64,000 bases of DNA. It comes from Nitrospiraceae bacterium (GTDB taxonomy: Bacteria; Nitrospirota; Nitrospiria; Nitrospirales; UBA2166). A model generated the notes under the pieces. It searched no databases. It saw only the letters and a program-made list of their open reading frames with translations, and was not told the origin of the DNA. Of this stretch, positions 41,249-64,000 are shown in pieces (the first letter of the stretch is position 1; each line of letters starts with the position of its first letter). Both the position numbers and the translations under genes were made by a program. The stretch covers positions 83,010 through 147,009 of the forward strand of contig PBSN01000002.1 in the NCBI GenBank assembly GCA_002726235.1, given 5' to 3'.

Positions 41249-41340
41249 GAATTTCGTTCCCGAATATGGGAACGGCGATAGCAAAATCATCTTGCCTTAC
41301 CTCGTGCGCTGTGCTCAGCCAAACCATAGCCTTTCTTATC
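41249..41340 (+). repeat. Diverged copy of 41631-41722 (internal segment of the radical SAM gene)
   Basis: An alternative minus frame reads IRKAMVWLSTAHEVRQDDFAIAVP versus IRKTMVWLSTAREVKQANFAIAVP in the gene. Confidence 0.85.
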
Positions 41341-42810
41341 ACCGGAAGACCTGCTAGTGAACACTCCTTTCAGCCTCGGGAAAACCCTTCCGAGCACCAG
41401 ACTCACTACACGAAGGAGCATCAGAATCCCGCCAAGAAGACCATTTTTTCTTAACATGGGAATCCAACGCCAAGGAGCCGAATAAACGCTAACGAAACCT
41501 TCATTTTGCAGTTCGATCAGGTCCTCAGGTCCAAGTTCACCAACTTTCGTAACAGCCGTCCCATACCGCCGGTATTCTGAGAAATCTTCCGTCAATAAAT
41601 TAACACCATTTCCGTTTCTCGCCATCTCGTGAAATTCTGTTCCTGGATATGGAACAGCAATAGCAAAATTAGCCTGTTTTACCTCGCGCGCTGTACTCAG
41701 CCAAACCATCGTCTTTCGTATTGTTTCACGCGTTTCGCCAGGCAAACCTATCATCACGGAGTTCAAGGTCTCAACACCATGCTTGTTACAGATTCTGTTC
41801 GCCTTTTCATAATGCTCCAGAGGTATCTGTTTTTTCATTGTCTTGCGCATTTCACTGTCGACGGTTTCAAGACCAAATGATATCCGGGTGAGACCGGCAT
41901 GCACCAATCGCCTCATGAGCTGGTCATCAACCAAATTCGCACGTGTTGACCCCTCGAAGGTAATTGACAGGCCCTCTTCCACGATCAGATCACATATTTC
42001 CAAGATGTGTTCTTTCGTCATGGTCAAAACATCGTCAATAAAATAGAAGTGCTGGACACCAAACTCGGAAATTACTGCTTTCATCTCATCAACAACCGAC
42101 CGTGGAGATCTTTGGATTACCCGTGTTGTATCCAACTTATCCGAAGCACAAAATATGCATTTCCACGGACACCCTCTTGTTGTCTGAATTGAGGTCATCG
42201 ATTGCCGCCCATTTACAGTTTTGGACTTGTACAGATTCATTTTCAGCAAATGTCTAGCTGGAAGAGGAAACTGGTCGAGTGGATACCCCCTTCCTTCGTG
42301 GTCATCGATGGGATCCGGTCTACCAGTAGAACAAATCTCACCATTTTTACGAAAAATGATTCCCTTAACCCCGGAGAGATCTTTCCCCCCTTCAAAATAG
42401 TCTAGGAACGTTGGCCAGGATTTCTCAGCCTCGCCGACGAACGCATAGTCAAACATCGGCTGCAGCGCTTTTTCCTCCACGATCGTGACATGCGGACCAC
42501 CAATTGCAATCGGCGCCTTAACGCCGGCATTTTTCAAACCTTGTGCGAGACTTACATTGATGTGAAAGAATGGAGTAAATGCCGTCAAACCAATAACATC
42601 CGGACCAACTTCCTGCGTCATTGCTATCATTTTTTCGAGTGACAAATTCTCGGCCTCTCCATCGATAATGCCAACTTCGTGCCCCCTTTGTTCCGTGATC
42701 GCACCAAGAAGCGCTAAGCTTAATGGAGGCCAAATCGCTTATTTCCGTGCAAAATGCCGGAAAATCCCGTAGCCAGTGGTCCAACTCGGATACAAAAACA
42801 ACACTTTCAT
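41287..42810 (-). pseudogene. B12-binding radical SAM protein interrupted by an in-frame TAA at 42739-42741
   Basis: ATG 42810 (AGGAG upstream) reads MKVLFLYPSWTTGYGIFRHFARK*AIWPPLSLALLGA... in frame with ORF 41287..42645, which has GGPHVT, VGEAE and RGCPWKCIFC. Confidence 0.85.
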
Positions 42811-43015
42811 CTCATTCCAACTCCTCTGCATACACAGAAATTCCTATGTACAAAGATAGTTTCTCCATACAATGTGCGTCGCGTCATCGAGATTGATGCG
42901 TATTGCGTCGCCCTGACGAACATGCCTTACTCAAAAACTTTCAAATGAAATCTAGCTCACAGGCCAAACGTCGTCTACTGCGACACACGTATTTTCCGCT
43001 GCAAAACGTCAACCC

Positions 43016-43882
43016 CTACTCCAGCTCACTCGCGCTCACCTGAAAAAAGACGTCTCCACGGACAAATTTTCGTTTGCTTTTTCCTTGACTCCGATAGTGT
43101 TTCGCATGCTCGTATCGATGCAACGGAATAATCCTAAAATCCAGACTCACACGAGTCCTTCCCTCCGTGTTCTCTGCAGGCCCGTGAAGGCATCGTGGAT
43201 CAAACGCGATGAATTCTCCAACCTTCATGTCAACCGGTTTCGTGCTGCGAACAACGAGGGACTGAAAATCATCATCCGAGAAAAGGCGCTTATGAAAATG
43301 TTCACGCCCCGCCGTATGATACACGTCTGAGTCCCAACCAATGTCGTCAAAAACACGGCCGATAACTTGGATTCCGCTCGCAAGATCAGACATGTGCAAC
43401 GCGTTTGATGCCCTGCATTCCGTTAGGGGCAACCAAAAATTGACTTCCTCAAATGAGTGGCCGAGCATCGTATCGGAATGTTGCCCCAGAAACACACCGT
43501 CCTTGTTGCGCTTGTTGCGAAAAGCTTCCCCAAAATGAACCGGGAAGTGAAATCTAAAATTTGGAATCGCTTGAAAAATAAAATCATACTGGAAGTATTC
43601 CCGATGAATATACTTGATAAGACCAAAATAAAGCTCACGAAAACGGGTACTGGTTTCGTAGAATTGATCAACGACGTTGTTCATATAATGCGCATTTACC
43701 ACCTGATCTTTGGGAGGGATGTGCTTGTGCAACTCTTCAAGAGACACTGCATTCTTCACAATGCCTTTTTCAACAAGCATCCTTGTCACTTCCGCGACAA
43801 ACAGAAATTCCTGGTGCGGGTAGGTCAAACGTCGAAACCCAGTCTCGACTAAACTCGGCCTGTCCAGTTCCGTCCTGTCCAT
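43016..43882 (-). CDS. StrG-like/PhyH-like Fe(II)-2OG oxygenase
   Basis: FQAIPNFRFHFP, HSD..LGH, EVNFWLPLT, LHG, N.EG.TRVSLDFR. Confidence 0.75.
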   Translation of the reverse strand: MDRTELDRPSLVETGFRRLTYPHQEFLFVAEVTRMLVEKGIVKNAVSLEELHKHIPPKDQVVNAHYMNNVVDQFYETSTRFRELYFGLIKYIHREYFQYDFIFQAIPNFRFHFPVHFGEAFRNKRNKDGVFLGQHSDTMLGHSFEEVNFWLPLTECRASNALHMSDLASGIQVIGRVFDDIGWDSDVYHTAGREHFHKRLFSDDDFQSLVVRSTKPVDMKVGEFIAFDPRCLHGPAENTEGRTRVSLDFRIIPLHRYEHAKHYRSQGKSKRKFVRGDVFFQVSASELE

Positions 43883-43964
43883 AGCAATCTCACTTCCATG
43901 GATAGTTCATCATGTCCCAGCCCTCATCCATGCAAACAACTCATCAATAATTACCAGCGCGTCG

Positions 43965-45137
43965 TTAGCGTCTATTGAGGCGTTGCCTCTGTAAGGACTT
44001 CGCAAGCAATACCACTTGGCGCAGTCCTTTTTTTACATCATTCGTCTCGCCACAGATCGACGCTCGAACAAACCCAGCACGCCCAAAACTCGCTCCCGGA
44101 GTTACAGCAGTCGCGAATTCGTCCAACAGTCTCGAACAAAACACCCTGTCATCAATCTTCAGCTTTCTAATATCGATCAACAGATAAAACCCGGCTTCTG
44201 GTTTCACGCAGGCCAAATAATCTGACCTAGTGATAATCTTTAGACACTCATCACTCAAGGCTCTGTAATATTTTTTCCTACTATCCGTAAACGAGTCAAT
44301 GATAGGGACCCCCTCGGTGATGCCTTCCTGAACAAAAACAGGCAGGCACGAGTACAACGTCGAGGAAGAAAGTGCAATTTTTTCTACGACTCTAGGATCC
44401 GCAACTGCATACCCAATACGGTACCCCGGGACACAGAATATTTTTGAGAAAGAGGAGATAATAACGAGCTTCTCGTACTCAAAACCTAACAAGCTAAAGT
44501 AGGTTTTATTGTAACTCAGCTTACTGTACGTTTCATCACTCACGACCCAACAATCCCGTTTCACGGCCTGTTCTAGCAAGTATTTCAAAAGACCTTCATC
44601 ATAGACAGCTCCAGTTGGATTATTTCCAGAGTTTACAAATACAACTTTTGGGTTTGCAGAAAAGGCCTTATCGATGGTCTTTTTCGTAATTTGAAACCCA
44701 TTGTTCATTGATAGAGGGACTTGATGCATCGTGATTCCAACGTACCCGCATACCGCGATATAGGTCGGAAACGCCGGCGTGAAAAGTGCAACAGTTTCGG
44801 TTGCTTCACAAATAATATCCAAAATTTGGTAAATGAGCATATTGGCAGGACTGATGACAACGTTCTCCGTCTTAATATGCCGCTGACAATTCTCAGAACA
44901 GTAACCGGCTAACTTTTCACGCAGGGACAGCAAACCGCTGGGGGGGGCATAGCCAACTTCAGAATTCAGGAGAGAAATAATTGTTCTATTGATAACGCGG
45001 CCCGGAGGATATCTCTTCGGTTCACCTAGTTCGAGGTGATACACCGGCTTTCCATCACGCTCAATGTTCCGGGCTTGGTCCTGAAGGGAAAACATTTCTT
45101 GACCGATTAAAGCCTCGCCTCGCCTTGAAAACTTCAT
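43965..45137 (-). CDS. Class I/II PLP aminotransferase
   Basis: LELGEP, NNPTG, SDETY, SFSKIFCVPGYRIGY, PGASFG. Confidence 0.9.
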   Translation of the reverse strand: MKFSRRGEALIGQEMFSLQDQARNIERDGKPVYHLELGEPKRYPPGRVINRTIISLLNSEVGYAPPSGLLSLREKLAGYCSENCQRHIKTENVVISPANMLIYQILDIICEATETVALFTPAFPTYIAVCGYVGITMHQVPLSMNNGFQITKKTIDKAFSANPKVVFVNSGNNPTGAVYDEGLLKYLLEQAVKRDCWVVSDETYSKLSYNKTYFSLLGFEYEKLVIISSFSKIFCVPGYRIGYAVADPRVVEKIALSSSTLYSCLPVFVQEGITEGVPIIDSFTDSRKKYYRALSDECLKIITRSDYLACVKPEAGFYLLIDIRKLKIDDRVFCSRLLDEFATAVTPGASFGRAGFVRASICGETNDVKKGLRQVVLLAKSLQRQRLNRR

Positions 45138-45187
45138 GCCTAATGAGCCTGCTTTCGAAAAGTTAAAATAATATCCTCGGCCAGCGC

Positions 45188-46189
45188 TTAATACTCATCG
45201 TTGTAAAAGATGACTTGCGCTCCATGCGTTTCAAAGTTGAATGGTACCCAGACGCGAATATTCGAGAGTGCCTCCTTGATACGAGCATGACATTCAGGTG
45301 GCGCTAGAAACATGATAAATCCTCCACCCCCTGCGCCCATGATTTTACCCCCATACGCGCCAGCCGCCAGACCTGCCTCATACAGCTCATCGATTTCTGG
45401 GGTTGTGATGCCATGGGCCAACGACCGCTTGAGCAACCACGTGTGATGGAGCAACTTTCCAAGACAATCGACATCTGCATGATTGCGAAAAAGATGAAGC
45501 GCTTCCTTCGCGATTGAGAGAAGTTCACTCACGCGCGTTTCGCCTTTTTCCATTTTCGCAATTTGCTCCCTCGCGATATCAGAAGCAACTCGCGTCAACC
45601 CCGTGAACCCAAGGAGTACATGCTGACGCAAATTCTCAATAAACTCTGGTGGCAAGATAAGGGGGGTGACCCGATAACCCTGACCCCCAATTTCCGGCCC
45701 CATCTCAATGATGCGAAACCCGCCATTCGCCGACAAAATCTGATCTTGAATGCCAACACTTTCTTGGAGAACGGATTGTTCGATATGGATCGCCTCCTCC
45801 GCCAGTTTTTGCTTGGTAGGCATTTCATGGCGCAATCCATGGAGGGCAAGGAGTAACCCAACGGTGAAGCTTGAGCTCGACCCTATCCCCGATCGTGCTG
45901 GAATATCAGCATCGTGATGAATCTCCAGTCCACCCTCAGCTCCAAGATACTCCAAGCACCCACGCACCGCTGGATGTTCTATCTTCTTATGCTCATCAAC
46001 AGATTCTATCTTAGAGTACACAACTCTTGTTTTATAATCGAAAAATGGCTCCAGGCGGCGGCAAGAAATATAACAATACTGGGCAAACGTTGAGGCAATG
46101 ACTAAGCCTTCATTTTGTGAATACCAGGCCGGATAATCGGTTCCTCCACCGAAGAACGATATTCTAAATGGAGTCCGCGTAATAATCAT
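45188..46189 (-). CDS. hddA: D-glycero-D-manno-heptose-7-phosphate kinase (GHMP family)
   Basis: RTPFRISFFGGGTDYP, DIPARSGIGSSSSF, GIQDQ, GGKIMGAGGGGF. Confidence 0.9.
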   Translation of the reverse strand: MIITRTPFRISFFGGGTDYPAWYSQNEGLVIASTFAQYCYISCRRLEPFFDYKTRVVYSKIESVDEHKKIEHPAVRGCLEYLGAEGGLEIHHDADIPARSGIGSSSSFTVGLLLALHGLRHEMPTKQKLAEEAIHIEQSVLQESVGIQDQILSANGGFRIIEMGPEIGGQGYRVTPLILPPEFIENLRQHVLLGFTGLTRVASDIAREQIAKMEKGETRVSELLSIAKEALHLFRNHADVDCLGKLLHHTWLLKRSLAHGITTPEIDELYEAGLAAGAYGGKIMGAGGGGFIMFLAPPECHARIKEALSNIRVWVPFNFETHGAQVIFYNDEY

Positions 46190-46216
46190 ATGGACAGTCC
46201 AACACTCATATGATCT

Positions 46217-47263
46217 CTACCCAACGGAACACTCCGATTCGTGCGCGCGAGTCGCCACTTCCTTGGCAACCTTTGCTCTCCAGAACGCCATGAGATGCCG
46301 TACACTCTCTTCAATCGTGTACTTTGGCTTCCAGCCCGTTGCATTCAAAAACTTCTCCACCTTGGGTATCTGAAGCGTCACGTCAGCAGGGCGAAGAAGT
46401 TGTGGGTCCTGTCGAGTCTGGATCGGCACCCGACTCTCCGTTTTCAATAGTGCAAGAAACTCTCCAACACTCATTGATGTCGCGCCACCGATGTTATAGG
46501 CCTCCCCTGGCTGGCAATGCACTATGGCCTTCCAATACGCTTCCATGGCGTCTCGAACATCAATCAACGTTCGAATTGAGTCAAGGTTACCATGGAGAAG
46601 CTCACACTGAAGCCCGTGTTCAATCCGAGCTACCTGCCGGGCAAACGAGGTCGCAAACAGATCCGTACGCCGTGGATTAAAGTACGCAAACATACGTGTC
46701 CGAATGATTTGCATCTGATAGCTACGGAAATACGTCCATCCCAGCAAATCTTGCGCTACTTTCGACACCGCATACGGGCTGGACGGCCGAAGCGCTACCT
46801 CCTCGGCAATGGGAACATCTTTCGGGTCAACCTGGCCATAGACCTCAGACGTGCTACAGAGTTGGATAATAGGATTAATCCCCGCGATCCTAACCGCCTC
46901 AAACAAATTTGCTGTACTCATGATGTTGTTATTGAGAACTGCCAGCGGGGTGGTAAACGACGCTTTCACATTCGCATGCGAAGCGAGATGAAAAATGGCA
47001 TCAGGTCTCACGGCGGAAAGCACGGCAAACAGCGAACTAAAGTCGTTCATATCACATTCATGCATAACCACGCTTGAAGCAATTCCTGCCAGATTGCTAG
47101 AAGCGGTCGTACTATGCCAACGAGAAATTCCATGAATTTCAACCGCCGGGTGATTCTGAACAACGTACTCGGCCAAGTAGCTACCACCCGATCCGCTAAC
47201 CCCCGTGATGAGGATGCATTTGAAGTCTGTTACACGTTTCGTTTCCATCCCACTCCCAAGCAT
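46217..47263 (-). CDS. gmd: GDP-mannose/GDP-heptose 4,6-dehydratase
   Basis: TGVSGSGGSYL, HLASHANVKASF, STSEVYG, SPYAVSK, GNLDSIR..IDVRD, LLRPAD. True start may be ATG 47248. Confidence 0.82.
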   Translation of the reverse strand: MLGSGMETKRVTDFKCILITGVSGSGGSYLAEYVVQNHPAVEIHGISRWHSTTASSNLAGIASSVVMHECDMNDFSSLFAVLSAVRPDAIFHLASHANVKASFTTPLAVLNNNIMSTANLFEAVRIAGINPIIQLCSTSEVYGQVDPKDVPIAEEVALRPSSPYAVSKVAQDLLGWTYFRSYQMQIIRTRMFAYFNPRRTDLFATSFARQVARIEHGLQCELLHGNLDSIRTLIDVRDAMEAYWKAIVHCQPGEAYNIGGATSMSVGEFLALLKTESRVPIQTRQDPQLLRPADVTLQIPKVEKFLNATGWKPKYTIEESVRHLMAFWRAKVAKEVATRAHESECSVG

Positions 47264-47347
47264 TTACTCATCACAAGGGAGGCCAATGAGGCCCCAGTTC
47301 ACAAAGACCAATTCGCAGAGCAGTCAGCTCGGTTGCGGGAAACATAC

Positions 47348-48328
47348 TCACGGCTTAAGAACCCCCTTTTCTCCCGCATAAAACTGATGGGCATTATAAA
47401 CTTCCTCTATTTTCATTCGTTTCTCCTCTGCAAGTGCCCCAAGGTAGCTTGCGTCAACGTTTTCCTCGACATGTTGTTTACGCAACATTCCCGGAATAGC
47501 CGTTGAAACAGCAGGATAAGATAAACAATATCTCAATGCCAGTTGAGCGTCAGTTTGATCCTCTGTTCGCCGTATTGTGGAAAACCTCTGGTTCGCGGCG
47601 GACCAGAGGTCGAGTTGCTCAGAGGACCAGCGACTACGATGATCATACGCACCAAATTCTGTTTCAGCCGTATACCTTCCGGTCAAAAACCCAAAGCAGA
47701 GTGGTGTTCGGCATATCAATCCAACCCTCTTCGTCTCACACAAACCCATAAGTCCATTCAACAGCATTCGCTGGTCAGCCATATTAAAATTGACCTGTAG
47801 AACATTTGCGCCGAAGTGTTCTATGGCGAGCAATCCATCATCGGGACATCGCACTGAAATTCCCCACGACCGAATCTTTCCTGCTCTCTCAAGTGATTGA
47901 AGGGTGTCAACAATCTCCTCAGCATTGCCCAGAGACGCCAACGGCGGATCATGTAACTGATACACGTCAATATAGTCCGACTGGAGTCTTTTCAGGCTCC
48001 CATCAACGGACATCTCGATATGCGCGGGAGAAAAATCCTGATGGCCATTTTGGTCGAGAAGTCCGCCTTTTGATGCAATGACCACCCGGTTTCGAATCTC
48101 CTTAAATGTCTCACCGATCAATCGTTCACTGTGACCATGTCCATACAAATCAGCGGTATCATAAAACGTGATGCCCAAATCAAACGCACATTTCAAGGCC
48201 TCTCGGCTCTCCGTATCATCGGTCGGCCCATATGATATCGCTCCCTGATTCACCCCACCAATACCCCAAGCACCAAATCCAATCTCAGACACCCTGAGCC
48301 CAGTGCAACCAAGCGTTCTATAGTTCAT
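47348..48328 (-). CDS. Aldo/keto reductase
   Basis: YRTLG.TGLRVSEIGFGAWGIGG, DTADLYG, SK, SLKRLQSDYIDVYQLH, IPG. Start at ATG 48328. Confidence 0.92.
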   Translation of the reverse strand: MNYRTLGCTGLRVSEIGFGAWGIGGVNQGAISYGPTDDTESREALKCAFDLGITFYDTADLYGHGHSERLIGETFKEIRNRVVIASKGGLLDQNGHQDFSPAHIEMSVDGSLKRLQSDYIDVYQLHDPPLASLGNAEEIVDTLQSLERAGKIRSWGISVRCPDDGLLAIEHFGANVLQVNFNMADQRMLLNGLMGLCETKRVGLICRTPLCFGFLTGRYTAETEFGAYDHRSRWSSEQLDLWSAANQRFSTIRRTEDQTDAQLALRYCLSYPAVSTAIPGMLRKQHVEENVDASYLGALAEEKRMKIEEVYNAHQFYAGEKGVLKP

Positions 48329-48392
48329 GATCGTATATGCATCGGAAGAAGCGTGGTCAAAACAACGATTATGGACATTGCTACTTCCCTTT

Positions 48393-50387: not shown

Positions 50388-50568
50388 TAGATATTCCTTC
50401 TCTCAACGCTCACGAAAGTACAGCATGAGCGTTTGAACTGCATAGCAAAGCAAACATCATTCCGTTATAGAAAAGTGAAGAGTGCTCTGGAAACCGCCGG
50501 TCGCCAGCGCCCAACAGGTAACATCTCATACCCTAAATGTTACCCGTCTCCCATGTTACGCGAAGCAC

Positions 50569-51648: not shown

Positions 51649-51658
51649 TAGAACGCAT

Positions 51659-51700: not shown

Positions 51701-51745
51701 CTAGAGAAACAGTATCGGTAGTTGGAAGAAGCGAGCGCAAGGAAT

Positions 51746-53686: not shown

Positions 53687-53687
53687 T

Positions 53688-55562
53688 TTACCCTACAGTC
53701 GTATCCTGCAAGTCAACAGTCCGGCGCAACCTTGGGCTTAAACGCGCCTCAAGGTCTTCGGCTAGGCGAAACAATCCAAATACATCGAATCGTATCTGCC
53801 AGTAGGCAGACTGTTGAACAAGATCTTTGGCTTGCGCCAGCCTACGCTTCGCCTCATCAAAGTTTTTTAATTTTTGTTCGATAAGAGCAAAATACAAACT
53901 CCCTAAGGCATGTCCAGTATGCGTTCGATCACACATGCTGAAAAACATCTTGCGCAGCATGCCAAGCTTCATTTCACATTCCACATCATGGAGCCTTTCG
54001 TAATTTATCTTGTAGTCCATGATGAACCAAACGTCTTTGATTTCATCGTCCGTAGGAACGTGAGTGGAGTCCCCTTCCTCCATCAAGTTGTACCATCGTG
54101 CTGCACTGCTTGTCTCTGCTGCTTCACGCAATATCTGTTTGCCGGTCGAACCTAGAAACGGACGCTGGGACCCATCAACGAGTTGCTCCTCCACTATTTT
54201 GCCAATACTGAGTGTCCAATCGGTGAGTTCCGTTGCCGGGATCAAGGTGAGCGGCTGTATCACACTTCAGTCAAATTGCATCTCCCTCCCTAAATTGATG
54301 GTATCAGTAAGCTGACTGATCGTTTCTCCCGGAAACCCACACATGAAGAGCCCACGCGTGAAAATCGAAGGATAGTTTCGCAAAATTTCCCCGGCTTGAA
54401 TGTAGTGTTTTACCGTACTTGGTTTGTATACGGCACGTAAGATTTTATCGCTTCCAGACTCAACCCCCAAACTGAGTCCAATACAGCCCGATTCAGAAGC
54501 ACTGTGCACAATTTCATTGGTTAGTGCAGAAGCAATAATCCCATTTGACGCATCCCACGTAATTCCAAGGTTGCGTTTTGTTATCTCGTTAAACAGTTGA
54601 ACGGTTCTCTTCTCCTTATAAAACAAGTCATCATCCAACCACATAATGTGCGTAATTCCATATCGATCTCTCAAGTTCTCCAACTCATCGACAACAGCAT
54701 TGACATCTCTGTCATTCACACCTTTTCCATTGAAATGCCTCACTGAGCAAAAGGTGCATTTTGCTCTACATCCTCGATTTGAGAGCACAGTGGAAGCACG
54801 AGTAGCATCATCAAAAAGCCAGTAGTATGTGCCGATTCGGCCAAGGGAGCTATATTCTTCGATTTTCAAGTCACGATAGTCAGCAGCTGCATTCAGATCA
54901 TTGGATTCAACAGGTGCCCGCTCCGTAATGGCAATATATTGCTCATTCTCGATCGTGCAAAGTTGAGTTAAGCTTGATTCTGGCTGCTTTCCGTTTATAA
55001 AATCCAGCATATCAGGAAGGCTCGTATTGCCTTCATACAAACCAGCAAAATCAATTCCAGCACAGTCTTTAAGCACCAATTCCGGAACACCTGATGTGTG
55101 AACCCCGCCGGCAAAAACGGGAAGTTGAGCGTATAGTTCCTTCACATAACCAGCAACCTGTTTCATCGCACGGTGGGTAACTGAGAACATACATGTTAAA
55201 CCTACAAAGTCTGGATTAAGGTCATCAATTTTTTTCCGTAGCCATTTCCTCCAAATATTATATTTAAAGTTCTGAGGAAAACTTTTAAGAGCCGCTTGCT
55301 GTTCAAAGTTGAGGTCCATGATATTGGCTTCATAGCCCCTTCGCTGGAGGCATTCAGACAGAACACCTAAACCATACGGCGGATATATTGGATATCTATT
55401 TTGAACTGCAACGTTAATATCATAATCCTCTTCGGGAACTCCCATTGGATTAACCAATAGCACACGTTTACATCCATTGGGGAACATCCTCTGAAGTTTT
55501 CGCCCAATCGCCGCTTTGGCAATCGCTTCACCCTGACCGACGCTTTCAATCACGAGATTCAT
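53688..55562 (-). pseudogene. B12-binding radical SAM protein interrupted by an in-frame TGA at 54267-54269
   Basis: ORFs 54267..55562 (PPYGL, GGVH, RGCRAKCTFC, DDD, GFPGET) and 53688..54263 share a frame: ...EMQFD*SVIQPLTLIPATE.... Read-through gives a single 624-codon gene. Confidence 0.85.
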
Positions 55563-55629
55563 GCGCGCGATCCTTTACGATGTTTGCAAAAGAGTCATCA
55601 GATGATAATCGCCCAAGCTTAACCCGCCC

Positions 55630-57021
55630 TCAAGCCATGCTCCTGAGATGTTTATAGCGCGGAACAAAACGATCGAAGGTTTCGCAAACGAGGTTCGCAA
55701 ATTGCTTGCCCGATTCTGTAATGACAATCGTTGTGTTAGAAAGCTCTATAATATTCTCTTGGGCGAAATCACAAAGGATCGTTTTTTCCTCGCCAAAATA
55801 CTTCTCAAAGTTAATACCATATTGTTCTTCAATGCTACGGCAATCAAGATAAAAGTAGCTTCGTAGGCGAGTTATAATGTCACGTCGCATAATATCGTCT
55901 TGGTCTAATTTATACCCGCGGTAGATTGGAAAGTGTCCCTTCGTAATCGCTTTCTCATAATCCGGTTCATCAAAACAATTCTGGAAATAATAGTTTTCGC
56001 CAACCGTGCTATAGCTGCTTATTCCGAGACCGATCACACTCGCATATTTTCCAGATGTATAGCCAAGCGCATTCCAGTGCATTTTTTGCTCTACCAAGGC
56101 CTTCGCAACAGCGTCTGTCGGCTTAGCAAAATGGTCATATCCAATTCGCACATACCCACTTCGCTCAAGAACATCAAGCGCTTCATAAAACAGCATCTTT
56201 TTCTCATGCATACTTGGAAGTTCAGATCGATTCATCAGTTTCTGATGCTTGGCGAATTTCGACAAATGCAAATAATTGAGACAAATTCGATCCGGGGACA
56301 TGTCTACCACCTTATTGATTGTTTCCCGAATCGAGGTTGGAGTTTGTCGAGGCAATCCGCAGATGATGTCGAAATTAATGCCGTTCACAAAACACTTCTT
56401 AATCTCGGGCGCAAGCAAGTTTTCAATTAACTCTGGAGGCTGCACTCTATTAATAGCTTTCTGAACATCAAGATCAAAATCTTGCACGCCGAGCGATATC
56501 CGATTAACTCCCTTTTCATGGTAGAATTTCAGTCTCTCCTTATCGACTCTTCGTGGATCTATTTCGATTGAGAATTCGCTTAACCTGTCTATATCAACAA
56601 TGGTTCGTACACGCTCCATAAGCTGCTCAAACTCGTCTTCACAAATATACGTCGGCGACCCTCCACCAAAGTGGACTTCCTGAAAATTTGGCGTCAGCGA
56701 GTGTTGATCCAAAAAATCCCGAAATAGCTCGACCTCGCGATGCAGAACACTGAGATATTTTTTCACTTTTTCATAACTGTGGGTTACCGTCATGTGACAC
56801 GTACAAAACCAACACAATTCCTCACAATGTGGGATGTGAAGATAGAGCATTAGTGGAGAGCTTTTATCACATGAGAATAGATTCTTGAGAGCCGTTCTGA
56901 ACTCTTTATCGCCAAATTCCTTTGACCAATGACTGTGATGAGGATACGCCGTATACATAACGACATCACAGTCGTATTTGTCGATCAAACGAGCGTACGT
57001 TTCACTAACTATGGCAGCCAT
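55630..57021 (-). CDS. HemN-like (class C) radical SAM enzyme
   Basis: YTAYP, LYLHIPHCEELCWFCTC, GGGSP, EIDPR, RISLGVQDF, GLPRQT, GYDHFAKP. HemN RNFQGYT is replaced by WNALGYT. GGGAGA precedes ATG 57021. Confidence 0.88.
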   Translation of the reverse strand: MAAIVSETYARLIDKYDCDVVMYTAYPHHSHWSKEFGDKEFRTALKNLFSCDKSSPLMLYLHIPHCEELCWFCTCHMTVTHSYEKVKKYLSVLHREVELFRDFLDQHSLTPNFQEVHFGGGSPTYICEDEFEQLMERVRTIVDIDRLSEFSIEIDPRRVDKERLKFYHEKGVNRISLGVQDFDLDVQKAINRVQPPELIENLLAPEIKKCFVNGINFDIICGLPRQTPTSIRETINKVVDMSPDRICLNYLHLSKFAKHQKLMNRSELPSMHEKKMLFYEALDVLERSGYVRIGYDHFAKPTDAVAKALVEQKMHWNALGYTSGKYASVIGLGISSYSTVGENYYFQNCFDEPDYEKAITKGHFPIYRGYKLDQDDIMRRDIITRLRSYFYLDCRSIEEQYGINFEKYFGEEKTILCDFAQENIIELSNTTIVITESGKQFANLVCETFDRFVPRYKHLRSMA

Positions 57022-57225
57022 TCGGTTTTCTCCCGTCTTTTTAAAGTGAAGCATATTCCCGCTAAGCTGTATTGTCGCCTGAGAGAAGAATCACTCCCTG
57101 TGTCACCTCCATAGCCGCCTTGCACATGTATCGCCCGCCACAATATCACACCGAATACACCCTATCAGCATCCCAGGAGAACGAACCAAGACATACTATC
57201 ACCAGCAGCAATAGTTGTTGCGAAG

Positions 57226-58134
57226 CTACACATCTCGAAGCATCATCTCAACAGTATCGACGATGCGCATGGTGGTTGGCGTCCCGTTTTCCAAACGCTT
57301 CGCTACGCCTGGGGAACGATCCGCTTGCCCCACCGCCTTAACCGGACACCCAGTGGCATACATTAATTCATATGCCACAGATTGTGATGCCCCGGCAATC
57401 TCATAGGCAGAATCAACAACGATGCCGTGACCACTCGCCTTCAACGGCTCCATCACTCTCTGAGTTAGATCAAACGGCTTTAACCATAGGAGGTGTACAA
57501 GGTTGCATCTTACCCCCCTGTGACCAAGCACCTCGACGGCTTCGACCGCATTGAAACGCGCCGCCGACATGGCATAGATCGTAATGTGTGCATCATGGTG
57601 TACCTGATCCGGCATTTCTTGTCTGCTGGTGTAACTACGCCGGTGTTCACTCACAAGCAACGGGTCATCGTGCGTCATATACCAATTCCAAATCTGCACA
57701 TACTCGTTTGGCGTCATCGGCGCACACACTGGAAGACCCGGCATATGCATGAACAGACTGTGGAAGCAATTGGTGTGTATTGGTCCTGTACTGTCACCCT
57801 CACTACCAATCGCACGCACAAACACCGGCGCCGGATAACCAAAGACGCTTTTCGCTTTCGCGGCGTGGTTGACGATAGGACTTGCATTGAGCCACAGCAA
57901 ACTTTGAAACCGAATGATAAATATCGGTCTCCGCCCCATAATGGCAGCGCCAACTGCAATGCCAGCTCCAGACACGTCTGTCATCGGCAACTCCACAATA
58001 CCCTCTGCCTGTGCCGGCACAGTATTCTGGACCCATCCCACCGCAGTAAGACACTGACCAAGAAGAATGCCGTTGTGTTTCGCAATGTGCTCGCGGCTTA
58101 TATCGCGGATCGTCTCTGCAACCGTTCGTTCCAT
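57226..58134 (-). CDS. TPP-dependent dehydrogenase E1 beta-like subunit (divergent)
   Basis: ELPMTD, GAAIMGRRP, NHAAK, GPIH, SEHR, transketolase C-terminal fold. Confidence 0.82.
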   Translation of the reverse strand: MERTVAETIRDISREHIAKHNGILLGQCLTAVGWVQNTVPAQAEGIVELPMTDVSGAGIAVGAAIMGRRPIFIIRFQSLLWLNASPIVNHAAKAKSVFGYPAPVFVRAIGSEGDSTGPIHTNCFHSLFMHMPGLPVCAPMTPNEYVQIWNWYMTHDDPLLVSEHRRSYTSRQEMPDQVHHDAHITIYAMSAARFNAVEAVEVLGHRGVRCNLVHLLWLKPFDLTQRVMEPLKASGHGIVVDSAYEIAGASQSVAYELMYATGCPVKAVGQADRSPGVAKRLENGTPTTMRIVDTVEMMLRDV

Positions 58135-59045
58135 AAATCCTCGACAAACGTCTTGATTTCCAGTTCGATCGCACGCGCCTTATCACGAAGTCCAATTTCT
58201 GTGAGTTTGGCCTTGGTCAGATCAAAGCGGCTCCACTCTGCATTGTTGTCGCTTCCTGTCCCGTTATGCCAAAACTCGCGACACGTTCGAATGTTAATGA
58301 TTGCAGGAAGCTGATCGGCTAACGTGGTTGTCCAATACTCGATCAACCACGGATCGTCGGTGATGTCCACGGCGTTTAACCCGAAGCCTTGCGCGACATC
58401 TACCACACTCCAGTTTCGCCGCTCAACCGTCGGAGTAAGGACTGAAAGATCGTTATCTTCACAAACGAAAAGAAGTGGAAGTTTCTTGGTAGCCACAAAC
58501 CCAAGCGTGGCAAGGACGTAATCCTCTTCGGCGGCCCCGTCACCGAAAAAACATATCACCCGCTCACCTGGCGCCGCGAGGGCAATACCCGCAGCTACCG
58601 GCACTTGATCGCCAATCAGCCCGTTATGAGCGACGATTTTGCGTTCAAAGTCGTGTGACGGCGGTGAACCACCCATACCACCACAACAACCCGTGGACAT
58701 GCCTAAAAGTTCGTCCGCAAGTCGTTCAGGTCGCCCACCGAATGAGAGGTAGACGGAATGGCCTCGATGCTGTCCGAGGACGTAGCATCCTTCCATCACA
58801 ACCGCGACTGCTGCAGCAACCGCCTCCTGCCCAACAGAAAGGTAAATCAGACATTCAATATCGTTATCAAGCTGGGCTTGCCGAACACGCAAATCGAAAT
58901 ATCTTGTCAGGCACATTTTGCGAAACATCGCCAACGATCGTTCAGGTGAGCACGCCTCTGCAAGGCCTTCCATCATCCCCCAATCAGGCGAACGTACCAT
59001 CCTTGGCTGTTGAGGCCCCTGCGCAATACCGCGTTCAATACTCAT
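58098..59045 (-). CDS. TPP-dependent dehydrogenase E1 alpha-like subunit
   Basis: YLSVGQEA, HRGH, GMGGS, GDGAAEE...LPLLFVCEDN (TPP motif). Start at ATG 59045. Confidence 0.9.
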   Translation of the reverse strand: MSIERGIAQGPQQPRMVRSPDWGMMEGLAEACSPERSLAMFRKMCLTRYFDLRVRQAQLDNDIECLIYLSVGQEAVAAAVAVVMEGCYVLGQHRGHSVYLSFGGRPERLADELLGMSTGCCGGMGGSPPSHDFERKIVAHNGLIGDQVPVAAGIALAAPGERVICFFGDGAAEEDYVLATLGFVATKKLPLLFVCEDNDLSVLTPTVERRNWSVVDVAQGFGLNAVDITDDPWLIEYWTTTLADQLPAIINIRTCREFWHNGTGSDNNAEWSRFDLTKAKLTEIGLRDKARAIELEIKTFVEDLWNERLQRRSAI

Positions 59046-59096
59046 ATGCTTGATCCAAGCTTTAAAATCATACGGAAAAATGTCATGGGCCCACAA

Positions 59097-60276: not shown

Positions 60277-61251
60277 TTATGTTGGGATTGATTCTCCGAG
60301 CAGGTTCTCACGATACCAACGTAACGTTTTTTGAATCCCCCCGTCGAGCGAGGTATTTGGCGTCCAGCCATACCGCGATTTCGCTTTATCGATATTCAAA
60401 TCAAGCTTGAAACCTATGCTAGGCTTTGTTAAATCGAATTCGGCTTTTAAATCCATTCCTGAAAACTGGATCATCTTGTGGACGAGGTCTCGAACCGAGA
60501 CTGATTTGCCTAACCCCAGATTGAGAAGTTCAAATGCCACGTTTTGCTTTTCTAAGGCCAGATGAATGAAGTCGATGAGGTCATCAACATAGAGAAAATC
60601 ACGCTCATCAGTCCCGTCACCCCAAACCATAATTTTTCCGTCCGTTGCAGTCAGTACCTTGGTCATCGTGGCACCAAATACATGTGATCGTTCCAGATCA
60701 AATTTATCGTGTGGGCCATAAATGTTTGAATGGCGAAGCACGGTGTATTTCGTTGAGCCTATTTGAGAATAAAACTCACACATTTTTTCGTGATACACCT
60801 TGGTCCATCCGCTGGCAAAATATTTCTCGTGTAGCTCTCCATTAAAATCTTCTTCTTTCACCGGTTCTTGCTGCTCTTGATACATCACTGTGCAACTCAG
60901 AAAAACCACATGCCCAACTCCTGCCTCATGGCTGGCGCGAAACAGAAGCGCATTCATGATTACGTTATCGGTGACATGGATATATGGACTGTTAACAATA
61001 TCTTTGGCGCCTGAGGTTGTTGCTGCGCTCTGAACAACAACATCCATACCCTGGACCACACGATATACATCATCTCGATTCGTCAGTTCGGCTTGAAGAT
61101 ATTCAACCGACGGAGTCTTATGAGGCACATCTGCTAGGTTCTGCCTACAAGTAGCGTAGACGTCATAGGCCGCATCTTTAGCAAAATACTCACATAGATT
61201 TCGACCAATAAATCCTGTTCCGCCGCAGACTAAGAGCTTCCGCCGCTTCAT
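60277..61251 (-). CDS. GDP-L-fucose-synthase-like extended SDR (non-canonical active site)
   Basis: GGTGFIG, NIYGPHDKF, SHV, VWGDG..ERDFLYVDD. YxxxK position reads SGWTK. ATG 61251 overlaps the upstream stop. Confidence 0.85.
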   Translation of the reverse strand: MKRRKLLVCGGTGFIGRNLCEYFAKDAAYDVYATCRQNLADVPHKTPSVEYLQAELTNRDDVYRVVQGMDVVVQSAATTSGAKDIVNSPYIHVTDNVIMNALLFRASHEAGVGHVVFLSCTVMYQEQQEPVKEEDFNGELHEKYFASGWTKVYHEKMCEFYSQIGSTKYTVLRHSNIYGPHDKFDLERSHVFGATMTKVLTATDGKIMVWGDGTDERDFLYVDDLIDFIHLALEKQNVAFELLNLGLGKSVSVRDLVHKMIQFSGMDLKAEFDLTKPSIGFKLDLNIDKAKSRYGWTPNTSLDGGIQKTLRWYRENLLGESIPT

Positions 61252-62216
61252 GTCTGACATCGTCCAATGTGTTTCTGATACCAATCAATCGTCCGCATCA
61301 GACCATCTCGAAGACTCACACGTGCTTCCCAACCCAACAGTTCTTTGGCTTTTGCTGGATCGGATACTCGATAAGGGATTGTCGCCGGTTTCTCAGGATC
61401 ATACGTCACCGACACGTCAAGATGCAGGATGTCCAAGATCACGGACACGAGATCCTTAATCGTGTATGCCTCCTTGGCGCTGATGTTTACCGGAGAGCAT
61501 GTCGCGTTCGTGTCAAGATTGATCATCAGGCCATCGACCAAATCATCAACGTATGTAAATGATCGAATTTGCTTTCCGTCTCCCCATACCTCGAACGGAT
61601 TCATCCCCTGTGTCGCCTTGACAATCAATGCCGGGATGACGTGACATTGATCGAGATTAAAGTTATCGTGCGGCCCGTAATACGCATTAGGGCGAACGAT
61701 TGCATATCTTGTCTTGCTGGTCATGTGACTGTATCGACACAGCGTTTCCAGATAACGCGTTGTCCAGCCTATACCATAATTTGTGGGAATCCATGGATCA
61801 CCTTGGAAGCCTTCACTTTCTACATTCGGTTTTCCCGTATCAGGATAGATATAACAGCTACTGATGAAACTACATCGATCCACCTTCATCTCTGCGGCCA
61901 GTACGATTAGTTTCGAATGTATATATAAATAATCTAAGATGAGGCTCGCTGGATTAGCTTGGATCTCCTTGGCACCGCGTACTCTGGCGGCTGCAAGAAA
62001 AACAATATCCATATCCGCAAACGCTGCGCGAGCCTTATTCTCGTCCATCAAATCACAAGACATAACCTCCAGGTTCGCGTGCTGCAGCAGCACCTTTCGA
62101 GTCGTATACTGCGTCGCTCTGACGAACGCGCCTTGTTCGAGAAGTTTTCGCACGAGGCTTTGCCCAACCAAGCCTGCGCCGCCAGCGACAAGAACGTTTT
62201 TCCCTCGGTAAAACAT
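61248..62216 (-). CDS. GDP-L-fucose-synthase-like extended SDR (non-canonical active site)
   Basis: GGAGLVG, FLAAA, YGPHDNF, HVIPALI, VWGDG..IRSFTYVDD. YxxxK position reads IGWTT. Confidence 0.85.
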   Translation of the reverse strand: MFYRGKNVLVAGGAGLVGQSLVRKLLEQGAFVRATQYTTRKVLLQHANLEVMSCDLMDENKARAAFADMDIVFLAAARVRGAKEIQANPASLILDYLYIHSKLIVLAAEMKVDRCSFISSCYIYPDTGKPNVESEGFQGDPWIPTNYGIGWTTRYLETLCRYSHMTSKTRYAIVRPNAYYGPHDNFNLDQCHVIPALIVKATQGMNPFEVWGDGKQIRSFTYVDDLVDGLMINLDTNATCSPVNISAKEAYTIKDLVSVILDILHLDVSVTYDPEKPATIPYRVSDPAKAKELLGWEARVSLRDGLMRTIDWYQKHIGRCQT

Positions 62217-62309
62217 GGTTGCTCAATTAGTAGGATAAGGGTGTGGATCTAGTACAGAATAGACGTGCTTTTCTTGTTCTTTAGAAATCCGTGCCGCTGC
62301 ATTTATCGC

Positions 62310-63350
62310 CTAGAAAGGTCCTTTGAAGTTTTTTTCGTAACTGTAGAACGATTCCCCACTCAGATCGGAATGTTCAAGGCCTAACATGCGTTCGACCGCC
62401 TGAATGATCGTCACTGCTGAAGGATAAAAGAGGTTTTCCAAGGGGCGAGTCGTTGGACATGGCACAGACGCGAAACCAAACCGTTCTACCGGCTTCTCCA
62501 GGACCTCAAAACACCTGTGACTAATGAGCGCAGCCAATTCAGCCCCGAACCCACAAAACACCCAGTCATAGTCGACAACAAGGCAATGCCTGGTTTTCAT
62601 GACGGATGAGGTGATCAGTCCCTCATCCAAAGGGGTAGCGGTTCGCACATCCACCACCTCCAACTCAACTCCTCGTTTAGCCAAAACGTCTGCCGCTTTC
62701 AATGCCTCAATGTTCATCCACGATGTCGCCACCACGGTCAAAGCATCACCTGTCCGACGTATGACGGACGACCCGAGGGGAATTTCCTCTTCCTCATCCA
62801 ACTCCCCTTCAACATCGTACAGCCACCGATGCTCCATGAAAATCACAGGATTGTCATCGCGAATCGAAGACCTCAATAGGCTATAGGCATCTTGAGGCGT
62901 CGTCGGAAGAACAACTTTCAGACCGGGAAAATGTGCAAATATCGAATGGAGTGATTTGCTATGTTGGGCCGACTGGCCCCACCCACGTCCGATGATAGCT
63001 CGAATCACTAATGGGATCTTCAGTCTGCCCGCACTCATATACCGCAGATTCGACACCATATTCGCAATCTGATTTATACCCAAAAGCATAAAATCCGCGC
63101 GGATATGTACGTGGACTGGCCTTAAACCTGAAGCGGCTGCTCCTAATGCAACACCGGTCATTGCATCCTCTGAGAGAGGGGTCCCAAAGCAACGATCCGT
63201 ACCGAACCGCTCGACCAAACCACGCGTACTTCCAAATATTCGCTTGTGATCCGGCACATCGAGGCCAAACACAAAAACCGTCGGATCTCTTTCCATCTCC
63301 CGCGTGAGAGCGAGGTTTAATGCCTTGCGAAATGTCGTCAGCGATGTCAT
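62310..63350 (-). CDS. TPP-dependent dehydrogenase E1 beta-like subunit
   Basis: TPLSE, GAAASGLRP, GRGWGQSAQHS, PGLKVV.P, DNPVIFMEHR, PCPT. Confidence 0.92.
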   Translation of the reverse strand: MTSLTTFRKALNLALTREMERDPTVFVFGLDVPDHKRIFGSTRGLVERFGTDRCFGTPLSEDAMTGVALGAAASGLRPVHVHIRADFMLLGINQIANMVSNLRYMSAGRLKIPLVIRAIIGRGWGQSAQHSKSLHSIFAHFPGLKVVLPTTPQDAYSLLRSSIRDDNPVIFMEHRWLYDVEGELDEEEEIPLGSSVIRRTGDALTVVATSWMNIEALKAADVLAKRGVELEVVDVRTATPLDEGLITSSVMKTRHCLVVDYDWVFCGFGAELAALISHRCFEVLEKPVERFGFASVPCPTTRPLENLFYPSAVTIIQAVERMLGLEHSDLSGESFYSYEKNFKGPF

Positions 63351-64000
63351 ACGAAAACATCGGTGTACAGCTCCGATGGAGCAGGGAATGGCGCCTGTTT
63401 TGCGGCTTGAATGCTTCGAGCAATCTTTTCATCCACCTCCGTTCGTATCGCGCGCAAGTCATCAAGCGAGCACTCGTTCCTGAGGAGATTTTTCTCAAAT
63501 CGAAGAACAGGATCGAGACGTGCCATTTCCGTCGACGCCGGCCGAAGCCTATACCCCACATCGAAGTCTTCTGCTATGCCAACATGCTCGAGAAACCGCA
63601 GATACGTAAGATGAAGAAACCCAGGTTTTGGTTGCTCAGACATTTGCTCCACCATCTGACGTGTCATCATGATGACCTCTTGGACATCGCTCCCATCCCC
63701 ACTCATGCAATAACACTCAAATCCCCCAACAATTTCTGATATGGATCGAAAGCCTTGTCGCGCAGCTGAAGGGGTATGGATCGCTAGATTATTGTCTTCA
63801 CACACAAACAGGATGCGAAGGCGATGCAAACAAGCAAAATTCATGCTCTCCCAGAAGCTACCTTCTTCCACCGCACCATCACCAAAAAAGGCAACCGCCA
63901 CGTCATCTGACTTCTTGTACTTGGCAGCAAATGCTGCACCTACCGCTAACGGAATTGTTGTTCCAACGACGGCCGATGTTGCGACCAAACCGCTCTCCGG
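63347..64000 (-). CDS. TPP-dependent dehydrogenase E1 alpha-like subunit, 5' end outside the window
   Basis: FFGDGAVEEG.FWES.NFA...FVCEDN, DGSD, YLRFLEHVG, YR, DP. Confidence 0.9.
   Translation of the reverse strand, partial: PESGLVATSAVVGTTIPLAVGAAFAAKYKKSDDVAVAFFGDGAVEEGSFWESMNFACLHRLRILFVCEDNNLAIHTPSAARQGFRSISEIVGGFECYCMSGDGSDVQEVIMMTRQMVEQMSEQPKPGFLHLTYLRFLEHVGIAEDFDVGYRLRPASTEMARLDPVLRFEKNLLRNECSLDDLRAIRTEVDEKIARSIQAAKQAPFPAPSELYTDVFV

Follow-up and report, generated by a model that had tools for sequence, protein, structure and literature searches.

Gene content of the island

The sugar-modifying genes described here lie on contig C2 (PBSN01000002.1) of the genome assembly of a Nitrospiraceae bacterium (GCA_002726235.1, here G000; 27 contigs, 1.87 Mb, G+C content 49%, completeness 90.65%). 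The window, i.e. the whole stretch of 64,000 nucleotides that was analysed, corresponds to C2:83010-147009. A first-pass annotation of this DNA had proposed that the genes at 41287-64000 form one pathway to a highly branched sugar, in which two stand-alone pairs of thiamine diphosphate (ThDP)-dependent E1 alpha and beta subunits attach carbon branches. We find that the region is a mosaic of two related cassettes rather than one pathway, and that its E1 pairs are candidate carboligases of an activated heptose. In the window every long open reading frame (ORF) is carried by the minus strand. Pfam matches delineate an unbroken glycan island of more than 81 kb, from C2:~77029 to the contig end at C2:158539, which covers the entire window. 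Its end at C2:~77029 is marked by a PglF-like gene, an initiating GT4 glycosyltransferase and a fusion of GT1 with a short-chain dehydrogenase/reductase (SDR), and on the other side the gene run goes on upstream past the window edge for 11.5 kb, up to the contig end.

Gene classes were assigned with Pfam and NCBIfam profiles, whose scores are quoted against the curated family cut-offs, and best matches in the PDB were obtained for the key SDRs and the DegT protein. All gene classes named in the earlier annotation were recovered in 41287-64000, as 19 genes on the minus strand:

63347-64000, minus strand: E1alpha of pair 1, cut by the window end, the full gene running to 64318 (L001:357-1328, 323 aa); PF00676 158 bits for the full gene, PDH_E1_alph_y 250.7 bits
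62310-63350, minus strand: E1beta of pair 1 (Transket_pyr and Transketolase_C; pyruvate dehydrogenase (PDH) E1 beta, 302 bits), with the canonical cofactor Glu (TPLSE)
61248-62216, minus strand: SDR_A, an Fcl/GFS-like SDR by Pfam and NCBIfam; top PDB match GDP-L-fucose synthase (GFS), 116 bits
60277-61284, minus strand: SDR_B, an Fcl/GFS-like SDR by Pfam and NCBIfam; top PDB match GFS, 94 bits
59097-60371, minus strand: LeuA-like Claisen condensing enzyme without the C-terminal regulatory domain (HMGL-like and HCS_D2; NF002086 536.8 bits, cut-off 532)
58098-59096, minus strand: E1alpha of pair 2, of a divergent family; PF00676 72.9 bits
57226-58134, minus strand: E1beta of pair 2, of a distinct family; LPMTD, with Asp where the cofactor-activating Glu is expected
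55630-57054, minus strand: HemN-type radical S-adenosylmethionine (SAM) enzyme; TIGR00538 405.8 bits, above the hemN equivalog cut-off of 324.95
53688-55562, minus strand: B12-binding radical SAM enzyme, one gene with an in-frame TGA (54267-54269), from homolog alignment
52598-53686, minus strand: GT_b, TIGR04440-type glycosyltransferase; 141.9 bits, cut-off 70
51746-52492, minus strand: PhyH-family Fe/2-oxoglutarate (2OG) dioxygenase; PF05721 91.2 bits
50569-51885, minus strand: GT_a, TIGR04440-type glycosyltransferase; 161.2 bits; the ORF overlaps the PhyH gene
48393-50387, minus strand: KedN5-like B12-binding radical SAM enzyme, 664 aa, intact; NF033712 280 bits, under the cut-off of 700
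47348-48463, minus strand: aldo/keto reductase (AKR); PF00248 195 bits
46217-47263, minus strand: GDP-sugar 4,6-dehydratase-like SDR; PF16363 218.8 bits; top PDB match 7us5, 183 bits
45188-46189, minus strand: HddA-like GHMP sugar kinase; HddA 114.7 bits, far under the cut-off of 600
43965-45137, minus strand: class I/II (aspartate-type) aminotransferase; PF00155 155.8 bits
43016-43882, minus strand: probable 2OG-Fe(II) oxygenase, called StrG-like in the earlier annotation; TIGR04324 64.5 bits against a cut-off of 150 (weak), PhyH 17.9 bits
41287-42810, minus strand: HpnJ-like B12-binding radical SAM enzyme with an in-frame TAA (42739-42741), from Pfam, NCBIfam and homolog alignment

The structure best matched by the dehydratase-like SDR, 7us5, is a GDP-D-glycero-D-manno-heptose 4,6-dehydratase. 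In the upstream part of the island, a further SDR (L001:3311-4303) matches PDB entry 6vo6, which we take to be the GDP-heptose C4-dehydrogenase Cj1427, with 350 bits (E 1e-103). Its gene adjoins that of an FAD enzyme passing the cut-off for L-2-hydroxyglutarate oxidase (LhgO; 401.8 vs 299 bits). The DegT protein of the island has ColD as its top PDB match (173 bits), and its catalytic motif FYFGHQMSTIEGG holds a His and no Lys; within the DegT family, ColD- and E1-type 3-dehydratases are recognized by a His at the position of the catalytic Lys. Like the HddA-like kinase, the guanylyltransferase (HddC, 142.2 vs 300 bits) and the GmhA matches (62-67 vs 209-276 bits) score under their cut-offs. 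The two glycosyltransferases are 35% identical over 361 aa, and the true start of GT_a probably lies further downstream than the ORF start.

The E1 pairs lack an E2 partner and differ in their active sites

As the first-pass annotation had stated, the E1 pairs stand alone, with no E2 or E3 gene nearby. The single match to PF00198 (E2) in the genome lies on contig C3, in an operon of its own directly after its own E1 alpha and beta genes. Five genes of the genome match PF00676: the C3 gene, the two island genes, a stand-alone gene on contig C21 and a weak match on contig C8. Used as a blastp query, the genome's E2 gave no match in 80 cellular loci carrying the beta subunit of pair 2 (E1beta2) or in 9 further loci.

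Both alpha subunits keep the ThDP motif GDG-X-C(E)DN. E1alpha of pair 1 retains GDG...EDN together with R..H.G..D, and that of pair 2 retains GDG...DN and R..H.G..D; within the pair-2 alpha family, GDG-X24-C(E/D)DN was recognized in 55 of 78 members. The pair-2 beta subunit keeps the His of the HS motif, and the catalytic His residues of pair 2 are retained. The two pairs differ at the cofactor site. A beta-subunit Glu normally activates ThDP, and pair 1 keeps it in TPLSE. When pair-2 E1beta was aligned by profile to solved PDH E1beta chains, its LPMTD fell on the canonical TPISE, placing an Asp at the Glu position. This Asp is present in all 21 sequences of alignment A1, in 65 of the 66 cellular members that could be parsed (14 of the 80 were unparsed) and in every aligned viral member. 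The chemistry of pair 2 may thus differ from that of known carboligases.

A FastTree phylogeny was computed from 95 E1beta sequences, with the C3 complex subunit as root. It unites the 81 pair-2 sequences in a single clade, on a stem of 2.78 substitutions per site (support 0.87). We also considered whether the E1beta2 proteins linked to a LeuA-like gene form a subclade of their own; this was rejected, the smallest clade containing them being the whole pair-2 family.

Pair 2 recurs with sugar-nucleotide genes in diverse cells

Among 40 relatives, one, G001 from the same genus, has a close E1beta2 ortholog (83% identity), the other matches being at about 30% identity. G001 carries pair 2 within a contiguous 12-gene module that is 71-84% identical to the island genes (71% for the oxygenase at 43016-43882), in the order KedN5-like B12 enzyme, AKR, dehydratase-like SDR, GHMP kinase, aminotransferase, 2OG oxygenase, SDR_A, SDR_B, LeuA-like enzyme, E1alpha2, E1beta2 and PhyH. 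The module is preceded by LhgO-like, Cj1427-like, guanylyltransferase and His-type DegT genes. Pair 1, the HemN-like gene and the two B12 genes that carry stops in G000 (see below) are all missing from G001. The run at 41287-64000 therefore does not read as a single pathway, and the earlier claim that all of it leads to one highly branched sugar is not supported.

Beyond the order, E1beta2 belongs to a large and strongly conserved family, with more than 120 proteins at least 57% identical to it. Scanning of genome contigs confirmed 164 of 257 candidate stretches, from which 80 loci were kept. According to their record titles they come from Verrucomicrobia, Bdellovibrionota, Chloroflexi, Nitrospirae, Elusimicrobia, Candidatus Brocadia, Ignavibacteria, Planctomycetes and Campylobacteraceae, from Alphaproteobacteria (Magnetospirillum, Magnetovibrio, Thalassobaculum, Pelagibacteraceae), from Geobacter relatives including Geomonas limicola, and from several lineages of the Candidate Phyla Radiation (CPR), Nanoarchaeota, Pacearchaeota, Woesearchaeota and one Methanosarcinales metagenome-assembled genome. 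To call neighbours, each stop-to-stop ORF was given the identity of the island query that it matched best (blastp, E<1e-15, coverage of 0.5 or more). The counts refer to 79 loci, the same-genus locus being left out; 41 of these have full 10-kb flanks:

E1alpha2 adjoining E1beta2: 77/79
Any B12 radical SAM gene: 56/79 (33/41 with full flanks)
DegT: 49/79
GHMP kinase: 44/79
Cj1427-like, at least 40% identity: 40/79
Guanylyltransferase: 38/79
SDR_B, at least 40% identity: 23/79
Dehydratase-like, at least 40% identity: 20/79
KedN5-like, at least 40% identity: 17/79
AKR, at least 35% identity: 14/79
LeuA-like, at least 50% identity: 8/79
HemN-like: 8/79
PhyH: 6/79
Class-I aminotransferase, at least 40% identity: 4/79
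Pair-1-type E1: 3/79 (L033, L057, L110)

Of the 79 loci, 45 combine an activation gene with a C4 enzyme; for those with full flanks the figure is 31 of 41. His occupies the catalytic-Lys position in 48 of the 49 neighbouring DegT proteins, as it does in G001. Where a KedN5-like gene is found elsewhere, it is usually followed by an AKR gene. The conservation expected of the module thus holds for the sugar-nucleotide context of pair 2, which recurs in these 80 cellular loci and in 80 viral ones, but not for the LeuA-like, aminotransferase, HemN-like and PhyH genes, which are only accessory.

Three further features of these cassettes were observed. In Candidatus Brocadia pituitae (L071:157-20891), flgI, flgK, a flagellin-like gene and fliW stand immediately upstream of the cassette, which points to flagellin glycosylation in that organism. 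DJ-1/PfpI proteins are part of the cassettes of L071, L099, L181 and L162, while those of L071, L099 and L036 include altronate/galactarate-dehydratase-like (GD_AH) proteins; neither type is present in the window.

Pair 2 is carried by large phages

Most of the look-alike clusters of E1beta2 listed in a protein atlas are viral. A scan of viral contigs (IMG/VR) confirmed 91 of 103 stretches, and 80 loci were kept (L146-L225), whose E1beta2 proteins show 34-47% identity. The neighbours found at these 80 loci make up the same cassette as in cells: they are E1alpha2 (79), DegT (69), Cj1427-like (43), B12 radical SAM (39), SDR_A (32), dehydratase-like (29), GHMP kinase (29), SDR_B (23), PhyH (15) and HemN-like (2) genes, and 66 of the 71 viral DegT ORFs of good coverage are of the His type. 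Five viral records were tested, and the three with a CheckV completeness of at least 93% (G317, G318 and G320) have a large terminase. These three near-complete phage genomes measure 186 kb, 173 kb (with terminal repeats) and 318 kb, and all are from uncultured phages. Large phage genomes of this kind have the E1alpha2/E1beta2, ColD-like, SDR and dehydratase genes, and some have PhyH, HemN-like and B12 radical SAM genes as well. In one of the three the cassette adjoins a gene for a ClpP-like protease. A viral E1beta2 had no match at E 1e-20 among 50,697 records of GenBank phages.

Pair 1 lies in a second, related cassette

No relative of pair-1 E1beta above 50% identity was found in 300 sampled Nitrospirota genomes. 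E1 proteins of the pair-1 type (45-50% identity) lie in nucleotide-sugar cassettes at all eight sampled Nitrospirota loci. Each of these includes a dehydratase-like SDR, and most also a DegT protein, a kinase or guanylyltransferase, or a B12 radical SAM enzyme; a KedN5-like enzyme is present in two (L129 and L134), accompanied by an AKR in L129. In the stretches examined at the eight loci, no E1 of the pair-2 type was labelled. The two E1 types are thus found in similar cassette settings in different genomes. In the island, the two pairs probably lead to different sugars, or to separate branches.

A third stand-alone E1 alpha/beta pair is present in G000, in another sugar cassette on contig C21 (L137:350-18629, plus strand). 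This cassette holds a fusion of an HldE-like PfkB kinase with a cytidylyltransferase-like domain, two DegT proteins, four SDRs, a methyltransferase, a zinc-dependent alcohol dehydrogenase, a GT2 glycosyltransferase, a FAD_binding_4 protein and a further B12 radical SAM gene.

LeuA-like, aminotransferase and HemN-type genes are accessory

The LeuA-like protein matches NF002086 over profile positions 4-382 of 516, lacking the LeuA_dimer regulatory domain, and is 48% identical to residues 4-381 of the genome's own 514-aa LeuA (contig C8). Its gene lies directly upstream of E1alpha2 in seven of the eight loci that have it, and in G001 as well. No LeuCD- or LeuB-like chain-elongation genes were seen in the six LeuA-bearing loci examined. 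Together with the class-I aminotransferase, the LeuA-like enzyme is an accessory that accompanies pair 2.

The HemN-type gene is the only one of its kind in G000. None of 20 relatives has an ortholog, their other best matches being at most 29% identical, which identifies the gene as island cargo rather than the haem enzyme of the lineage; a housekeeping role in haem synthesis was rejected on this ground.

Two of the three B12-binding radical SAM genes are interrupted

B12-binding and radical SAM domains are found in all three B12 genes of the run, and an intact frame in one of them. The ORFs at 54267-55562 and 53688-54263 are a single gene split by the in-frame TGA at 54267-54269. When the stop is read through as X, the product aligns over 576 aa with a 597-aa homolog from Brocadia at 45% identity, and a Trp of that homolog falls on the stop. 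The HpnJ-like gene starts at the ATG at 42810 and not at 42645 as listed, and a homolog 53% identical over 458 aa has a Gly at the position of its TAA. In this assembly the two B12 enzymes are inactivated by these stop codons. The four radical SAM genes of the earlier description, with their domains, are present, but two of the four carry in-frame stops. It had also been remarked that the run combines radical SAM with O2-dependent enzymes; this is true of the genome, but it is not unusual.

We aligned contigs of four public sequencing runs to window positions 41200-58200. A contig of run X6, which unlike X2 and X4 covers position 54267, has C there on the plus strand and hence the codon TGG (Trp), showing that an intact allele of the TGA-split gene exists. 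At the TAA (42739-42741) no variant was found in any aligned run; one X6 contig spans this site (it covers 42792, with at least 75 bases on each side). The aligned contigs also show many single-base differences, i.e. strain variation in the island, and those of X4 and X6 lack 9 bases in frame at 43502, inside the 2OG oxygenase gene. Contigs of the RNA run X19 matched 16 of 30 bins at 99% identity or more, although such matches do not demonstrate transcription.

In G000, nine matches to B12-binding domains exceed the cut-off, five of them located in or beside glycan cassettes. CobS (PF02654) was not found in this 90.65% complete assembly. Glycan tailoring may depend on scavenged cobamide.

Other sub-clusters of the island

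Outside the run, NeuB, UDP-GlcNAc 2-epimerase and several CTP_transf_3 genes (26891-29145 and 32373-36001) indicate a nonulosonic-acid pathway in the same island. A minus-strand sub-cluster at 34829-41041 includes an AroB-related sugar-phosphate cyclase (38185-39306; TIGR04425 455 bits, cut-off 400), two GFO/IDH/MocA oxidoreductases, an SDR, a SIS isomerase, a YhcH-family protein and a CMP-transferase/cupin fusion. It is kept in G001 at 70-80% identity and could represent a part of the island that leads to a cyclitol or carbasugar. A second, far more divergent HMGL-like protein of 567 aa is encoded at 15050-16753, adjoined by a 2OG-Fe(II) oxygenase (13972-14910) and a CMP-type cytidylyltransferase (13110-13868), all on the minus strand.

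Comparison with known systems

ThDP-dependent branching by E1-type enzymes has been described for antibiotic sugars of actinomycetes. According to a 2025 review (PMC12247030), alphaKADH2 enzymes branch the sugars of aldgamycin, kosinostatin, kibdelomycin, paulomycin and avilamycin; about 120 biosynthetic gene clusters hold an alphaKADH2 gene, KbDH has been tested in vitro, and YerE-like enzymes serve lipopolysaccharide (LPS). The word 'heptose' does not occur in that review. Like the island pairs, AviB1/B2, Pau11/12, the aldgamycin pair and KbDH-alpha/beta are stand-alone E1 alpha/beta pairs among genes for nucleoside diphosphate keto sugars, with no E2 or E3, and they are proposed to transfer a C2 unit of pyruvate onto a ketone, as was shown in vitro for KbDH (PMC12247030). 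C4 acetyl branches are reduced to hydroxyethyl, as PMC4753412 reports. The likeness of the island pairs to alphaKADH2 rests on E1 alpha/beta make-up and gene context. They differ in lying in a surface-glycan island and in phage genomes instead of an antibiotic cluster, in the GDP-heptose-type scaffold and in the regular partnership with B12 radical SAM enzymes; in addition, pair 2 constitutes a family of its own, in which the cofactor Glu that pair 1 keeps is replaced by Asp. Our literature searches brought up no published E1 pair in a GDP-heptose or surface-glycan cassette, although the in-silico survey of about 120 alphaKADH2 clusters may list some surface-glycan clusters.

The yersiniose pathway of LPS (E1/RfbH 3-dehydrase, then YerE, then YerF) follows the same logic: 3-deoxygenation of a 4-keto sugar by a His-type enzyme using pyridoxamine phosphate (PMP), ThDP-dependent acylation at C4, reduction of the ketone and incorporation into a surface polysaccharide. 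YerE, however, is no E1 alpha/beta pair but a member of the decarboxylase (acetolactate-synthase-like) ThDP superfamily, and it works on a CDP-activated hexose; no YerE-like gene is present in the island.

With the capsular GDP-heptose system of Campylobacter jejuni (HddA/HddC, Cj1427, DmhA and the HS:5 C3-dehydratase) the island shares a Cj1427 homolog with an LhgO-type gene, a heptose 4,6-dehydratase homolog, a ColD-type dehydratase, a GHMP kinase and a guanylyltransferase. We know of no ThDP, B12 radical SAM, LeuA-like or HemN-like steps in the C. jejuni heptose pathways. Class B, i.e. B12-dependent, radical SAM enzymes that C-methylate sugars or side chains include GenK, GenD1, Fom3 and KedN5. 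The island B12 genes share their B12-binding and radical SAM architecture, and one of them scores 280 bits with the KedN5 model, but all scores are far under the curated cut-offs, and stops disrupt two of the three in this assembly.

Proposed pathway and alternatives

The reading we favour, which we hold to be slightly better than an even call, is a ThDP-dependent C-acylation of an activated (GDP-3-deoxy-4-keto) heptose by the E1 pairs, within the two-cassette mosaic and followed by tailoring. Its early steps, namely activation, C4 oxidation or 4,6-dehydration, and 3-deoxygenation, are strongly suggested by homology. The GHMP kinase and the HddC-like guanylyltransferase would activate the heptose, a 4-keto sugar would be formed by the Cj1427-like dehydrogenase (with the LhgO-type recycler encoded upstream) or by the DmhA-like 4,6-dehydratase, and the ColD-type PMP dehydratase would take off the 3-hydroxyl. 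Such a 3-deoxygenation fits: it eliminates the alpha-hydroxyl group, through which ketol cleavage could otherwise occur, and repeats the substrate logic of yersiniose. In the key step, each E1 alpha/beta pair would act as a ThDP carboligase: a 2-oxo acid, most likely pyruvate, would be decarboxylated, and the resulting ThDP-bound acyl anion would attack the C4 ketone of the 3-deoxy-4-keto sugar, giving a C-acyl-branched tertiary alcohol, in the manner of YerE for yersiniose and of AviB1/B2-type (alphaKADH2) enzymes for antibiotics. From family membership, the B12 radical SAM enzymes are predicted to C-methylate, the AKR and the Fcl-like SDRs to reduce or epimerise, PhyH and the second oxygenase to hydroxylate, and the two TIGR04440 glycosyltransferases to transfer the product or products. 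The LeuA-like enzyme and the aminotransferase, as accessories of pair 2, probably supply or extend a branch derived from a 2-oxo acid. The first-pass idea of antibiotic-style ThDP branching on a surface sugar remains the best reading, given the absence of E2 and E3, the keto-sugar genes and the recurrence in 80 cellular and 80 viral loci; it is this context that supports it, and the chemistry itself we infer.

Several points weigh against this reading. The bacterium is known from its sequence alone. Pair 2 has Asp where all canonical E1beta subunits have the cofactor-activating Glu. The HddA, HddC and GmhA assignments are all under curated cut-offs, which leaves the Cj1427 and 7us5 matches as the main ground for 'heptose'. 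Once C4 is branched, no obvious substrate would remain for the two Fcl-like 4-reductases. Finally, the part given to the LeuA-like enzyme is a guess.

The position of the LeuA-like gene raises another possibility, which we regard as unlikely but worth keeping in mind: instead of branching the sugar ring themselves, pair 2, the LeuA-like enzyme and the class-I aminotransferase may produce a free building block, an acyloin or another compound derived from a 2-oxo acid, for later attachment to the sugar, for example as a longer functionalised keto-acid donor or as an acyl substituent. The recurrent placement of the gene directly upstream of E1alpha2 and the missing feedback domain are consistent with this, as is the fact that class-I aminotransferases act on free amino and 2-oxo acids. 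Moreover, according to PMC9306805, YerE-like enzymes use functionalised keto acids of C4-C8. However, pair 2 occurs without a LeuA-like gene in 71 of the 79 loci, no elongation isomerase or dehydrogenase was seen in the six loci examined, and the constant neighbours of pair 2 are enzymes that form keto sugars.

One linear pathway, in which all genes serve a single multiply branched higher-carbon sugar through two ThDP additions, a Claisen extension and four radical SAM steps, appears improbable. The genes are co-directional and tightly packed, and both E1 types do meet in L033, L057 and L110. Yet G001 has pair 2 without pair 1, the HemN-like gene or two of the B12 genes, the eight Nitrospirota loci have pair-1-type E1s with none of the pair-2 type labelled in the stretches examined, none of the LeuA-like, aminotransferase, HemN-like and PhyH genes is found in more than 8 of the 79 loci, and two radical SAM genes contain stops.

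That the E1 pairs are ordinary 2-oxo-acid or acetoin dehydrogenase E1s using a distant E2 and E3 is very improbable: pair 1 does score as PDH E1 with both subunits, and relatives are annotated as PDH or acetoin E1 in their sources, but the sole E2 has its own E1 alpha and beta alongside on C3, E2 is without a match in all 89 loci, and nucleotide-sugar genes are the neighbours throughout. Equally faint is a phosphonate reading, in which the LeuA-like enzyme, the B12 radical SAM enzymes and PhyH (in FrbC-, PhpK- and Fom3-like roles) would tailor a phosphonate downstream of the phosphoenolpyruvate (PEP) mutase-nucleotidyltransferase fusion encoded 9 kb upstream (L001:10094-11710). It was rejected: the weak NCBIfam matches to P-methyltransferases (127 and 113 bits) and to methylphosphonate hydroxylase (38 bits) are far under cut-offs of 500-600 bits, and PEP mutase is almost never a cassette neighbour, being absent from all 80 E1beta2 loci at the counting filter (a weak match of 24% identity appears in L097 at a looser one) and present in one of 9 further loci (L134). 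We also know of no E1-family enzyme that acts as a phosphonopyruvate decarboxylase.

A bolder reading can also be formulated, which we consider doubtful. Pair 2 would be a new class of ThDP enzyme, with Asp for the universal Glu, spread by large phages and cells. In the LeuA-linked subgroup, which includes G000, it would use or create a carboxylated, Claisen-extended branch, and the product would be a heptose-derived, acid-branched and C-methylated higher-carbon sugar new to glycans, with which phages might re-dress the host surface or their own particles.

Implications

This work contributes the mosaic of two, or with C21 three, E1 pairs, the Asp signature of pair 2, its link to a LeuA-like gene, a HemN-type gene peculiar to the island, two B12 genes disrupted by stops (one of them with an intact allele in another metagenome), and a count of phage carriers. 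ThDP-dependent sugar branching has so far been tied to a few LPS sugars (YerE type) and to actinomycete antibiotics (E1 type). On our reading, an E1-type system acting on an activated heptose would be very widespread and unstudied, extending over SAR11, anammox and magnetotactic bacteria, Geobacter relatives, CPR bacteria, DPANN archaea and large uncultured phages. Cultured carriers exist among the hosts of pair 2, namely Geomonas limicola Red745 (L059), Paramagnetospirillum kuznetsovii LBB-42 (L035) and Magnetospirillum sp. UT-4 (L040), which makes the reading testable. If it is true, new carboligases and B12 radical SAM enzymes would become available for biocatalysis, and pair 2 would be a natural test of whether Asp can stand in for the 'universal' cofactor Glu of ThDP enzymes. 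It would also predict a family of undescribed branched and C-methylated surface sugars in abundant environmental microbes.

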